Source of the DNA: Chloropicon primus
Lineage: Eukaryota
Length of the DNA stretch: 64,000 nucleotides
Reading direction: 5' to 3'
Assembly (NCBI GenBank): GCA_023205875.1
Contig: CP060755.1
Location: 1,240,001-1,304,000, forward strand
Below, one piece after another: positions 40,010 to 61,101 of the stretch (positions within the stretch are counted from its first letter, which is position 1; every line of letters starts with the position of its first letter). The notes under the pieces were generated by a model that saw only the letters and a program-made list of their open reading frames with translations, was not told where the DNA came from and searched no databases. The translations under genes were made by a program, and so were the position numbers.

Positions 40010-40657
40010 ATGGAGGCGGAGCAGCGGCAAGAGCCGTGCGACCCCTTCGGGCGGGACCCTGACTCTGCGTTTGGCGAGACCTCGCCGGATCCCACCGCGG
40101 GCTACGCCTTCGCAACGCCGCGAAAGTACCTCAAGAAGTGGTTCTTGGTGAGGTCGGGCTTCGACACCAAGGCGGCAGCTCTGGAGCACCTGCAGGGCGG
40201 GAAGCCGAACATGCGCTCGTACAAATACATGAGCGCGTCCAAGGGCGGCAGGAACACCGGGGCTGCCTACTACTACCAGTGCCAAGTCCACGAGGACTGC
40301 GCGCACCAAGTGAAGGTTCGGAAGGAGAACGCCAAGTGGGAAGTCTTCGGGAACGGAGCCCCTCACAGCCGAGGCCTGAGGGGCACGAAGCGGGGTATTC
40401 CCTCGATGCTTCGCTTGGACTTGGCCCCCTACTTCCTCTCCGCGACAGGCTTCGGGCCCATGAAAGCGAAGAAGCACTTGCTGCTCGAGTACGAGCGGGA
40501 GTTAAGCGGGGCGTGCGTCAGGGAGAAGCACCGGCTGCTCCTGGCGGTGACGCGTGAGCAGATCAGTCGCTTCAAGAACAGCCTGCTGCGCAGTAAGAAG
40601 AGGAGACCGAGGGGCAGAGAGGAGGGGGAGGAGACCGAGGGGCCGTTCGCTCCATGA
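40010..40657 (+). CDS. Orphan protein with a WRKY-GCM1/MULE-type zinc-finger-like segment
   Basis: YYYQC.VHEDC..QVKV...WEV....H pattern followed by a helical region and a basic tail. Codon usage matches neighbouring genes. Confidence 0.5.
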   Translation: MEAEQRQEPCDPFGRDPDSAFGETSPDPTAGYAFATPRKYLKKWFLVRSGFDTKAAALEHLQGGKPNMRSYKYMSASKGGRNTGAAYYYQCQVHEDCAHQVKVRKENAKWEVFGNGAPHSRGLRGTKRGIPSMLRLDLAPYFLSATGFGPMKAKKHLLLEYERELSGACVREKHRLLLAVTREQISRFKNSLLRSKKRRPRGREEGEETEGPFAP

Positions 40658-55740: not shown

Positions 55741-55842
55741 ATTCTACAGCTCGGCTTATTCTACAGCTCGGCTTATTCTACAGCTCGGCTTATTCTACAG
55801 CTCGGCTTATTCTACAGCTCGGCTTATTATACAGCTCGGCTA
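55741..55842. repeat. Tandem array of a 17-bp unit ATTCTACAGCTCGGCTT, 6 copies (last copy degenerate)
   Basis: Five identical units start at 55741, 55758, 55775, 55792 and 55809, followed by ATTATACAGCTCGGCTA. Confidence 0.95.
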
Positions 55843-56849: not shown

Positions 56850-57251
56850 GAAGAGGGCGTGAAGCGGGGTTGTTTGGATTTGGATTTGTATGTATAGTAC
56901 CCGGCGTGTAATGTATGTAGAGTAGAGCAGAGAGCAGGACAATGTAGCGATGAGAGAGGGGGACGACGGACTCGTTCTCGGGCCAAGACTCGATCTTGGC
57001 TGTCCCCTCCCCGTGAAGGTGAAGGCGAAATTGCTTCTCCCTCCATTTTTCCCGCTCCTCGAAAAATTCGAATTTCCCGCCTTCCCGCCTTTCCCGCCTC
57101 GTTTTGGATTTTGGGCTTGGCGCGCGCTGGAGATTGGGGAAGAGAGGTCCGACTCGGCGCGACCACTTGGAGCGTTCCCAGTCACGCTCACGTTGTGCGA
57201 CCGTCGGCCCCACGAGCTTTTAGGTTGGTTTTCAAAGGTTTTCGAAACAAG

Positions 57252-58899
57252 ATGGTGGCGAGCACGGAAGTGGTGAACGCCTTGCAGCCGGAGGGCGCGC
57301 TGTTCGAGATGGCGAGGGAGATGCAAAAGCAAGAGGAGGCCTCCCAGTGTGGCGCCACTGGGAGGGAGCTCGAGTCCCCGGCCCCGAGGGCCGAAAGCGG
57401 GATCGTGCACTGCCCCGTCACCACCACGTCCAAGACGCGGCCTTTCACGGTGAACGATGAGAGCATAGAACTAAGGTGGGTGCCCCGCCGCGATCGATCG
57501 AAGCCCCAACGATCCCCTCCTCCCTCCAACCCCCCTCCTTTTTTTTGTGTGTGCGAGGACATCAGAAGACGACTGACGCTCTCTGTCTCGAACGCACCGC
57601 AGAGCTTACAAGCTGGGCAAAGGCAAGTGCTCGTACAACATGGTCAAGTTGGACTTCTTGCACGAGCTGACGCCGCAGACCAAGTCCTTCAGCGTGGTCG
57701 AGGCGAACCAGGTGAGGCAGAGCCAGGACGAGGAGACCGCCGAGAGCAGCCTCAGGTACGAGCTCACCCTGAACAACGGCTCCAAAATCCTTCTCAACGT
57801 TTACGTGGTGTACTCCGTCCCGGACGAGGCCACCAAGGACGGCGACGAGGACTGCTACACGTGGAAGCTCGTGAAGAGGGGGTACTGCAAGAGGGGCTGC
57901 AAGGGGCCGATCCTGAGGGCCATCCAGAGGTTCGGCAAGCTCGGCAGGAGGTGCAGCGAGATCTGGAGCAGCACCAACTACAGGAGCGTCAAGCAGCTCC
58001 ACGACCAGGCGGCGAACTCCAAGGACCACCGCTTCCTGTTCATCTCGATCGACGAGGCTTGCACCCACGTCGCCATGGGGGACAAGAAGACCAGGTTCAG
58101 GCTGCTCTTCGGCGTGGACGACGCCAGGACGGGCAAGAAGATAGGGTCCGCGGTGTCCGCCCCCATCAGGGTCCTCGCGAACAACGACGCCCCAAACGGG
58201 GCGGCCTACATCAACATGCCCATCCCCCTGACGGAGAACTGGGAGGGCTGGAGGTCCCCGCTGGCGGAGAGGCTGAGGAGGTCCTTGGACGCCGCCGCGG
58301 TGCTGGAGGGTCCGCAGACCCCGGACAGCAACGCCGCCGCCGCCGCGGAGAGGGAGGCCGTGCTTGACAGCATCCTTTCCGGCCGCAACGTGAACAAGAG
58401 GGCCCGGGGGTCCGTCGGGGGGAACAAGAAGGCCGCCGTGACCCTCCTCCACCCCAAGAAGAGGGCCAAGCAGCTCGCGGCGGTCGTGACCCCGATCCAC
58501 ACCAAGGTCAAGCTCGAGAAGGGCGAGGTGCTGGAGGGTCCGCAGACCCCGTCCCCGACCTCCATCGAGACGGTGAGGGCGTCCATGACCAACGCCATGG
58601 CCGGGCTGCCCGTGATCCAGCAGGCGGCAGCGACGACCCCTTTGGCGGGGACCCAGGGGCACCCGGCCGCGGCCATGCAGCTCTTCAGCCCCGCGGGCCA
58701 GGTCCCCACGGGCCTCCTCAACGTCCCGATGTTCAGCCCGGTCTCGAACCACCACGTCCAGATCATGGCGACGTATCTGCAGGCGTACATGGCGATGCAG
58801 CAGGCCTCTGGGCTCGGCGGGGTCGGCGTGCAGCAGCCCCAGCAGCAGCAGGCCGCGGGTTCGGGACCAGCCGGCACCGGTACCGCCGAGAAGAAGTGA
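57252..58899 (+). CDS. Putative transcription factor: beta-rich domain plus Q/P/A-rich tail (exons 57252-57475, 57603-58899)
   Basis: A GT-AG intron with a CTGAC branch site joins the two frames. The globular part ends FRLLFGV...VSAPIRVLANND. NLS-like PKKRAK and a low-complexity C-terminus follow. Confidence 0.6.
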
Positions 58900-59371
58900 A
58901 CAAGAGAGAGTGAGAGAGAGGCAGGCAGGCGCTCCTCGGAGGGGAGGGGTCGGATGCATTTTTCTGGAGGAGCAATTCAATTCTCCCAGATGAGGGGGTC
59001 GTGGGACCAGCACCCAGGAAATGAGCATCGAGCGGTGAGAGAAAGCGCACTTCCTCGTCGCGCGCGGTGCTGTTTGTAATCATATATTTTATTATCTCCC
59101 CAACAAGAACCCACCACTTGCCCACTTTCACTTCAGCAGCAGAGGAGTCAAGGGAGTCAAGGGAGAGAGGAGGAGTCCCAAGGAGCAGCGAGCGGCTCCA
59201 GATGAAATCGGGGGAATCGCGCAAGGCCTTGGCGCGTGGGGGAACCCGCATCGGTCCATGCCCGACGCCGCGAAACCTCCTCGCCTGCGCACGCTCGGCC
59301 CGGAACTCGCGTTGCTCTTCTGAGTCTGCGCTCGAGCATTATCAGTACGAGCGGGTTCTCCCTTTACACTC

Positions 59372-59610
59372 ATCCTTGCACATGGTAAGAGACTCGCGTT
59401 TACTACACCAGTAGTCTTTGCATCGGAATCTGACCCTGGCATTTTTTTTTGTACATGATTTCACTTTTCCTCAAAAAGGGGCATTATCACAGTTTATGAG
59501 GTCTAACCGAGACGTGATTATTGCTGGTTGAAAACTACATCCAATACCCCCTATTTACTTCACTGTAAATAGAATTTCTGAACGCGGCATTTCTACACGG
59601 AAATCCGCTC
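59372..59610 (+). ncRNA. U4: U4 spliceosomal snRNA gene, split into exon 1 (59372-59384) and exon 2 (59479-~59610)
   Basis: The spliced sequence ATCCTTGCACATG|GGGCATTATCACAGTTTATGAGGTCTAACCGAGACGTGATTATTGCTGGTTGAAAACT is colinear with plant U4. It has the k-turn 5' stem-loop, stem I TTGCTGGTT, hairpin CTATTTAC/GTAAATAG, Sm site AATTTCTG (59573-59580) and terminal hairpin GCGG.ATTTCT/GGAAAT.CCGC. Confidence 0.9.
59385..59478 (+). other. Predicted 94-nt U2-type spliceosomal intron within the U4 snRNA gene
   Basis: Donor GTAAGA, branch site TCTGAC (59429-59434) and a T-rich tract. The first AG after the branch site is at 59477-59478. Confidence 0.85.
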
Positions 59611-59748
59611 CCTTCTTCCTCTCCGGCCACGGCACAAAATTGCTTCTAGAGACGTTAGTTATCCTGGAACCGAGGAACCGAGAGAAAGGGAGGCCATCCC
59701 TCGGTTGCTCCAACTCTGGAGATAGGTAGGAGTTCCAATACCAATACC

Positions 59749-60963
59749 ATGGCGGTGCTGCTGGAGACGTCGAAGGGGGACGTTGTGGTGGATCTCCTGG
59801 TGGATGAGGCCCCCCTGGCGTGCAAGAACTTCCTCAAGTTGTGCAAGATCAAGTACTACAACAACTGCCTGTTCCACAACGTGCAGAAGGACTTCATCCT
59901 GCAGACGGGGGACCCGAGCGGCACGGGGCGGGGGGGTACCTCCCTGAACGGGGTGCTGTACGGGGAGCAGGCCAGGTACTTCGCGGACGAGATCTCCAAG
60001 GAGAGGACGCACGCCAAGGTGGGGACGGTCGCGATGGCGAGCGCGGGGAAGGACCTGAACGCCTCCCAGTTCTACGTGACGGCGGGGGCGAGCCTGGACA
60101 GCTTGGACGGGAAGCACACCATCTTCGGCGAGGTGACCGAGGGCCTCGACGCGGTGGCCCGGATCAACGAGGCGTTCTGCGACGACACGGGGCGGCCGTG
60201 GCAGAACATCAGGATCAGGCACACCGTCGTGCTGGACGACCCGTTCGAGGACCCGCCGGGCCTGGGCGCCCACGTGCCGGAGGGCTCGCCCGCCCTGGCG
60301 AGGGACGAGGGCGACGACCGCCTGGAGGACGACTGGGCGCCCGCGGAGGAGGAGCGGCCGCCAGAGGAGGCGGAGAAGTCGGCGAGGAAGGCGGAGGCCG
60401 AGAGCAGGGCCGTCGTGCTCGAGATGATCGGGGACATGCCCGACGCGGGGGCCAAGGCCGAGGAGAACATCATCTTCGTCTGCAAGCTGAACCCGGTGAC
60501 GTCGGAGGAGGACCTGGAGATCATCTTCTCCAGGTTCGGCAAGATCACGTCCTGCGACGTGATCAAGGACTGGAAGACGGGGGAGAGCCTGTGCTACGCC
60601 TTCGTGGGGTTCGAGACCAAGGCGCAGGCGGAGCAGGCTTACTTCAAGATGGACAACGTCCTGATCGACGACAGGAGGATCCACGTGGACTTCTACCACA
60701 GCATGTACCACCAGTGGCGCAGCCGCAAGAAGGCTGGCGGGGCACCCCCGCCGCCGCCCCAGGCGCCGCCGCGACCCGGGGACCGCGGCGGCGGCGGCGG
60801 CCCGTCCCCCCGGAGGCAGAGGTCCAGGTCGCCGGCGCGGCGAGAAGACGGCGCCAGGGACCACCACCGCCACGAGGGGAGGAGGAGGCACAGACACAGG
60901 CACAGGAGGAGGGGGAACGGGCACGGCGAGGAACGCCGACGCGCCACGAGGTGGGAGGACTGA
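59749..60963 (+). CDS. PPIL4: Cyclophilin-RRM protein CYP59/PPIL4
   Basis: MAVLLETSKGD..NFLKLCKIKYYN, QTGDPSGTG, SQFYVT, HTIFGEV. RRM FVCKLNPVT..YAFVGF..KMDNVLIDDRRIHVDF. Arg-rich tail. Confidence 0.95.
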   Translation: MAVLLETSKGDVVVDLLVDEAPLACKNFLKLCKIKYYNNCLFHNVQKDFILQTGDPSGTGRGGTSLNGVLYGEQARYFADEISKERTHAKVGTVAMASAGKDLNASQFYVTAGASLDSLDGKHTIFGEVTEGLDAVARINEAFCDDTGRPWQNIRIRHTVVLDDPFEDPPGLGAHVPEGSPALARDEGDDRLEDDWAPAEEERPPEEAEKSARKAEAESRAVVLEMIGDMPDAGAKAEENIIFVCKLNPVTSEEDLEIIFSRFGKITSCDVIKDWKTGESLCYAFVGFETKAQAEQAYFKMDNVLIDDRRIHVDFYHSMYHQWRSRKKAGGAPPPPPQAPPRPGDRGGGGGPSPRRQRSRSPARREDGARDHHRHEGRRRHRHRHRRRGNGHGEERRRATRWED

Positions 60964-61101
60964 GGCCCAAACAGACTTTCTCGTGACGCAAATAATGTAA
61001 TGTACAAAAATATACAAATAATTTATGTATGTGTGTGTGTGTGTGTATGTCGTGCGATGTTGCACTCCTGCTGTGCTGCGCTGCGCGTGCGCGCGCCCGG
61101 C

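Follow-up and report, generated by a model that had tools for sequence, protein, structure and literature searches.

Results

The U4 locus and its neighbourhood

The whole 64-kb stretch of Chloropicon DNA that was analysed, hereafter the window, has a GC content of 54-66% per 2 kb, and its genes are dense and its introns few. According to Table 1 of PMC12301720, Chloropicon genomes have 57-60% GC, chromosomes of up to 2 Mb and 0.5-0.7 intron per gene. On its forward strand the window carries a U4 snRNA gene that appears to be interrupted near its 5' end by a spliceosomal intron, followed by a gene for a CYP59/PPIL4-type cyclophilin-RRM protein, the best protein matches of which are environmental proteins and then mostly chlorophyte proteins (Table 1). 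A long intergenic stretch contains, at 55741-55841, an array in which a 17-nt unit is repeated 5.9 times with 98% likeness between the copies.

Table 1. Coordinates of the U4 gene, its predicted intron and the adjacent features in the window.
Feature	Position	Strand	Remarks
Possible upstream promoter word, weak	59307..59315	+	-65 from exon 1; 8/9 identical to L039 word at -67
U4 exon 1 (nt 1-13)	59372..59384	+	5' part of strand pairing with U6 in stem II; matrix score, L039 match
U2-type intron (predicted), 94 nt	59385..59478	+	GTAAGA donor, AAG acceptor; 39% GC
Branch-site motif CTGAC	59430..59434	+	Predicted branch A = 59433, 45 nt from acceptor
T9 run (59442-59450) and pyrimidine-rich AG-free tract	59442..59472	+	
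U4 exon 2	59479..59608	+	Rfam, fold, L039 comparison
Exon 2: remainder of stem II	59479-59482	+	
Exon 2: k-turn 5' stem-loop	59486-59518	+	
Exon 2: stem I strand	59521-59529	+	
Exon 2: central hairpin	59551-59572	+	
Exon 2: Sm site AATTTCTG	59573-59580	+	
Exon 2: 3' hairpin	59584-59608	+	
U4 precursor 3' extension	59609..59646	+	Ends with non-templated A8 tail in run X5
CYP59/PPIL4-type cyclophilin-RRM gene	59749..60963	+	Synteny marker common to L039; outside U4 gene

The Rfam U4 model RF00015 matches positions 59467-59607 with 85.5 bits (E 1.3e-17; gathering threshold 46), which is the sole gathering-level match in the 64-kb window; no other snRNA was found there by Rfam at E<=1. The k-turn 5' stem-loop, the stem I strand, the central hairpin, the Sm site and the 3' hairpin are all present in the U4 body, and the fold of exon 2 beats 196 of 200 shuffles. 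At the 5' end the alignment is forced end to end across the last 12 nt of the intron, and mismatches occupy the majority of the first ten positions of the model. An earlier reading of this DNA, made from its letters without database searches (the sequence-only reading), had described a U4 body starting at 59479 without the conserved 5' end, with the missing 13 nt placed 94 nt upstream, beyond a gap furnished with a GTAAGA donor, a branch site, a poly-T tract and an AAG acceptor. The Rfam match with its mismatching first positions agrees with this description of the body, the coordinates of the 13 nt hold, and all of the signals were located.

Upstream of exon 1, the window and the related metagenome locus L039 share three near-matching pairs of 9-mers, and only the word listed in Table 1 stands at the same distance from the gene in both; the remaining upstream alignment of the two loci was uninformative. 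A 12-nt word at 59344-59355, also upstream of exon 1, occurs again near 40480-40495 within a sub-threshold Rfam match (40461-40547, E 0.2), and this repeat is probably due to chance.

The insert and its intron signals

The insert has what defines a U2-type intron, namely a donor with complementarity to U1 in the context G/GTAAG (ATG/GTAAGA), a branch motif, a pyrimidine tract and an AG acceptor. The acceptor AAG (59476-59478) is the first AG after the branch site, the sequence being AG-free for 43 nt past the branch A. A control intron of 127 nt located 1.8 kb upstream of the U4 gene (57476-57602), which is spliced in the RNA run X4, has a GTGGGT donor and the same CTGAC branch motif. The acceptor of the U4 insert is AAG, not YAG, and its distance from the branch point is 45 nt versus 26 nt in the control intron.

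The insert folds no better than chance (z 0.15), and a search for a snoRNA inside it yielded no Rfam match at E<=1. No second copy of it was found by blastn in the 64-kb window or in 173 loci, and inspection revealed no terminal inverted repeats or target-site duplication of the kind left by transposons, but just a 1-nt G repeat at the junction and no stable terminal pairing. A 9-mer inside the intron (59449-59457) agrees at 8 of 9 positions with the 3'-terminal 9 nt of exon 1 (59376-59384), and among the U4 5'-like words in the 400 nt upstream the one at 59414-59423 ranks second, with 6.1 bits. This weak self-similarity of the intron to exon 1 may be a matter of chance or may be the trace of an origin by local duplication.

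Exon 1 and the proposed splice junction

Exon 1 was scored with a matrix of 10 positions, for which intronless U4 genes supplied 13 distinct 5' ends. It reached 12.1 bits, while the unspliced sequence gave -9.4 (-9.4 to -11.8 for a start near 59466-59467). Just 3 of the 127,960 window positions on both strands, exon 1 included, score that high, and of these three exon 1 alone has a GT in register. The chance expectation of such a word in the 400 nt upstream is 0.009, and with a GTRAG donor in register it falls to about 1e-5.

The spliced form was evaluated with a profile HMM built from 64 intronless U4 genes, from which L039 was left out and which served as a stand-in for the Rfam model. The spliced sequence scores 68.7 bits over model positions 1-131 and the unspliced one 61.9 bits over positions 11-131; among 56 GT/GC-AG junctions the proposed 59384/59479 joint is the best, the next one scoring 65.1 bits. 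The energy of the stem II duplex, calculated with U6 of other organisms in place of the host's own U6, is -26.9 kcal/mol for the spliced U4, -17.3 kcal/mol with the intron retained and -17.9 kcal/mol for a start at 59466, while five intronless U4 controls paired with the stand-in U6 range from -23.8 to -28.7 kcal/mol. Removal of the insert restores the conserved U4 5' arm and the U4/U6 stem II. These data bear out the expectations of the sequence-only reading that the spliced form would score fuller and higher, that excision would bring back the conserved arm and that stem II would be complete only after splicing. The intron lies inside stem II, and therefore the unspliced U4 would hold U6 weakly.

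Position 9 of exon 1 is A, while most sampled U4 have G there, and the A mismatches the stand-in U6. The intronless U4 of another locus, L164, has the same A and lies beside an ordinary U6; for this reason the substitution seems to be tolerated. A compensatory change in the host U6 opposite this position was considered as a strict test and dropped, given the combination found in L164.

The same results bear on the simplest alternative, according to which the RNA is not spliced, a working U4 with a divergent 5' arm begins near 59466-59467, and the 13-mer upstream is either coincidental or a relic. Rfam does align the unspliced DNA end to end, and the unspliced arm still forms the partial U6 duplex of -17.9 kcal/mol given above. 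On the other side stand the negative matrix scores for that start, the identity of the resulting 5' end to L039 at only 3 of 13 positions, and the RNA contigs of runs X4 and X5 described below, which extend to 59442 and 59407, both of them upstream of it. We consider this alternative highly improbable.

Comparison with L039 and other U4 loci

The nearest intronless U4 was found in the metagenome locus L039 (61% GC). It scores 89.1 bits with Rfam, and over 122 nt its identity to exon 2 is 82%; all U4 elements and the same neighbouring gene are common to both loci, and the difference is that L039 is colinear. Of its nt 1-13, 10 are identical to exon 1, and this block joins the exon-2-like sequence in exact register, whereas the 13 nt that directly precede exon 2 in the window DNA match it at only 3 of 13. 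L039 also encodes the C-terminal RRM end of CYP59, which is 85% identical over 26 aa to that of the window's neighbour. The two genes are arranged tail to tail in L039 (1-78 and 533-673) and head to tail in the window, and a single inversion of CYP59 would turn one arrangement into the other.

A comparison of the two sequences over a structure-guided choice of pairs in three hairpins showed 26 of 26 stem pairs kept, six of them by double and two by single compatible changes, and none broken. The complete retention of the pairs, with six double changes, indicates that the U4 of the window is not a decaying copy.

A wider survey, made by a stem I motif scan of metagenome contigs covering 24 of 64 parts, gave 124 loci, mostly of distant U4 types. 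A contiguous 5' motif was recognised by pattern in 98 of them (91 at a spacing of 51-53, the other seven mis-anchored or decayed), 20 are cut by the end of the locus, and six have no 5' end. No second split U4 was found among these 124 loci, and the six without a 5' end show no exon-plus-GT by eye. Three further U4 genes, found in prokaryote bins, are colinear, and neither a U4 of this clade nor CYP59 was found in the viral and prokaryote collections. Eukaryotic contigs in bacterial genome bins (L173 3162-7402; L164 1-1974; L165) carry tight clusters of U1, U2, U4, U5, U6, SRP RNA, 5S rRNA and tRNA genes, and 15 U6 matches in the prokaryote collection look like contamination.

DNA and RNA contigs over the locus

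In the DNA run X1, from which the window may derive, one record covers 57000-61000; it is an unbroken contig of 10,145 nt with no differences or joints. At 85% likeness no second U4-like record was present among the X1 records left after filtering, which is compatible with a single-copy U4 gene. The runs that contain this stretch include marine metagenomes.

Run X4 consists of RNA, as shown by the spliced 127-nt GT..AG control intron, and run X5 was classed as RNA because of its A tail and its gene-restricted pieces. A contig of X4 (59442-60205) spans U4 and the spacer, with one end in the T9 run of the intron and the other in the CYP59 reading frame; it may represent read-through, a pre-U4 that overlaps the leader of CYP59, or an antisense RNA for which the T run was the priming site. 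A contig of X5 covers 59407-59646 and ends in A8, with no genomic A run past 59646. The depth of X5 on the U4 piece is 40.7, a value left unused as evidence in a run picked by its match to this stretch. In run X17 the U4 gene is without cover. Thus U4 RNA that contains the 3' part of the intron together with exon 2 was seen in two studies, once with a 38-nt 3' extension and oligo-A. The starts of the contigs at 59442 and 59407 place the beginning of transcription upstream of the Rfam start at 59467.

Mature U4 is not polyadenylated, and poly(A)-type libraries enrich the precursors of any snRNA. The joint 59384/59479 is not listed in the three RNA-type runs, whose contigs report presence only; exon 1 is uncovered by the X4 and X5 contigs, and at 13 nt it falls below the word length of 31 nt used in such assemblies. 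The splicing step is therefore inferred.

The intron-containing RNA may also be looked at from the opposite side. If the gene were a disabled or minor U4 copy, split by an insertion, with its transcripts tailed and destroyed while an intronless U4 elsewhere supplies the spliceosome, one would expect what is seen here, in that all RNA seen over the gene contains intron sequence and is A-tailed in one case. Intron-bearing and intronless U3 paralogs are described as coexisting in 8 fungal genomes in the section of PMC5832005 on these genes. The proposal is nevertheless unlikely in our view. All 26 stem pairs are kept, six by double changes, the gene occupies the syntenic position of the L039 U4, and the filtered X1 records hold no second U4-like sequence. 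Moreover, a random insertion would not bring a donor, a branch site, an AG-free tract and an acceptor in register (about 1e-5 for exon 1 and the donor alone).

Discussion

Taken together, the data are best explained by a structurally intact U4 gene that is split after nt 13 by a 94-nt U2-type intron, which is likely removed by the major spliceosome; we put the probability of this reading at roughly 0.8. It is very likely that the U4 gene of this green alga is functional and carries a spliceosomal intron specific to its lineage, the splicing itself being deduced from the gene structure and the comparisons described above.

The following course of events may be proposed. RNA polymerase II would start at 59372 and the transcript would be capped; polymerase III would terminate at the insert's T9 run. 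RNA in which the 3' part of the intron is joined to exon 2 does exist, and its tailed, extended form is likely a precursor or a surveillance intermediate. U1 would bind ATG/GTAAGA, A59433 would branch and the first downstream AG would be used. By the computed energies, the spliced 5' arm would pair with U6 as well as the arms of intronless U4 do, while the unspliced arm would lose about 9.5 kcal/mol. Trimming of the 3' end to about 59610 and Sm loading at 59573-59580 would yield a mature U4 of about 143 nt that pairs with U6. The intron was presumably gained in this lineage at a G/G site and is most likely tolerated, not selected. Gain is favoured over loss because the syntenic L039 and the other sampled U4 genes are intronless, a direction that relies on a single close relative and on a sample in which distant U4 types predominate.

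A spliced intron could also be kept by selection, if slow splicing of pre-U4 tied the U4/U6 supply to spliceosome activity and the retained form was tailed and degraded. This is a stronger version of the explanation that we prefer and not an alternative to splicing. The tailed, intron-containing U4 RNA agrees with it, as do the suboptimal AAG acceptor and the long branch distance, but such RNA would be enriched from any snRNA by poly(A)-type libraries, the close relative represented by L039 manages without the intron, and the loop would be a positive feedback (less splicing, less U4) and as such destabilising. Control of the U6 level by splicing is raised as a possibility in the discussion of snRNA introns in PMC5855946. 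We regard maintenance by selection as doubtful, and feedback control through the U4 intron is at present a speculation. Equally tentative is the fullest version of the scenario, in which this is the sole U4 gene of the alga and the first intron-split snRNA gene outside fungi, of a class absent from the printed record, the intron was recently gained in a genome with few introns, U4 is spliced before chaperoning U6, and slow splicing together with tailing and decay sets the spliceosome supply.

Returning to the preferred reading of a tolerated and spliced intron, its nearest precedents are fungal, as the sequence-only reading had stated. Section 14 of PMC5855946 lists spliceosomal introns in the U6 gene of S. 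pombe and many other fungi and in U2, U5, U1 and rRNA genes, a list in which U4 does not appear, and it describes the determinants of such insertions as unclear. For the U6 introns it cites Tani and Ohshima (1989, 1991) and Canzler et al. (2016), and for the U2, U1 and U5 introns of Rhodotorula hasegawae Takahashi et al. (1993, 1996). In the passages of PMC5832005 on these RNAs, U3 and U6 are named as the only ones among small structured RNAs to be often interrupted. A literature search conducted largely outside subscription papers turned up no published intron in U4 or in any snRNA gene of an alga, so that the absence of a U4 or green-alga precedent, also suspected from the beginning, holds as far as the searches reach. 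Two Chloropicon genome papers do not mention snRNA in the main text or in the supplementary files covered, which were 12 out of 20 for one paper and the single file for the other, and the portions of PMC2396436 and PMC5033589 consulted contain nothing further for comparison.

The sole U6 gene of Schizosaccharomyces pombe and the other fungal U6 genes resemble the present case in that a core spliceosomal RNA is split by an intron with canonical signals, apparently in a lineage-specific manner. They differ from the window, where the split gene is a polymerase II-type U4 gene of a green alga, splicing is inferred, and the insertion site is in the arm that sequesters U6 and not beside the catalytic triad. 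The U2, U1 and U5 genes of Rhodotorula hasegawae are likewise Sm-class snRNA genes with spliceosomal introns, and U1 shares with U4 a departure that precedes formation of the active site; the window adds the one major snRNA missing from the list of PMC5855946 section 14, in a non-fungal host with about 0.5 intron per gene.

In its layout the U4 intron appears closest to the introns of the fungal U3 snoRNA genes. As given in PMC5832005, the latter are about 92 nt long (94 nt in the window), and 133 of 138 are located in the 5' half of the first stem-loop; they share with the U4 intron the GT-AG ends, the cap-proximal position in the 5' segment that pairs with the partner RNA and the very short first exon. 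The U3 introns have a YAG acceptor and a branch distance of about 15 nt, in contrast to AAG and 45 nt here. U3 serves rRNA processing, and therefore its intron creates no self-dependence, as that of U4 would.

The sequence-only reading also argued that reverse splicing at the active site, the explanation used for U6 and U2 introns, fits U4 poorly. The point is a fair one, although it is not new, since PMC5855946 says the same of U1 and rRNA introns in its treatment of such insertions. Because U4 is non-catalytic and leaves at activation, an intron in its gene would weigh against active-site reverse splicing as a general entry route for snRNA introns.

If the proposed structure is true, intron-split snRNA genes extend beyond fungi and U4 is added to them, a class that is new as far as print is searchable. 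Because Rfam calls the gene full length with a wrong 5' end, split U4 genes may easily be overlooked. The intron-bearing and intronless orthologs in two related small-genome marine algae offer a clean comparison by which to date the gain and to distinguish a neutral from a regulatory intron. If the U4 RNA of this alga is spliced, its spliceosome likely depends on its own activity for the maturation of one of its components.
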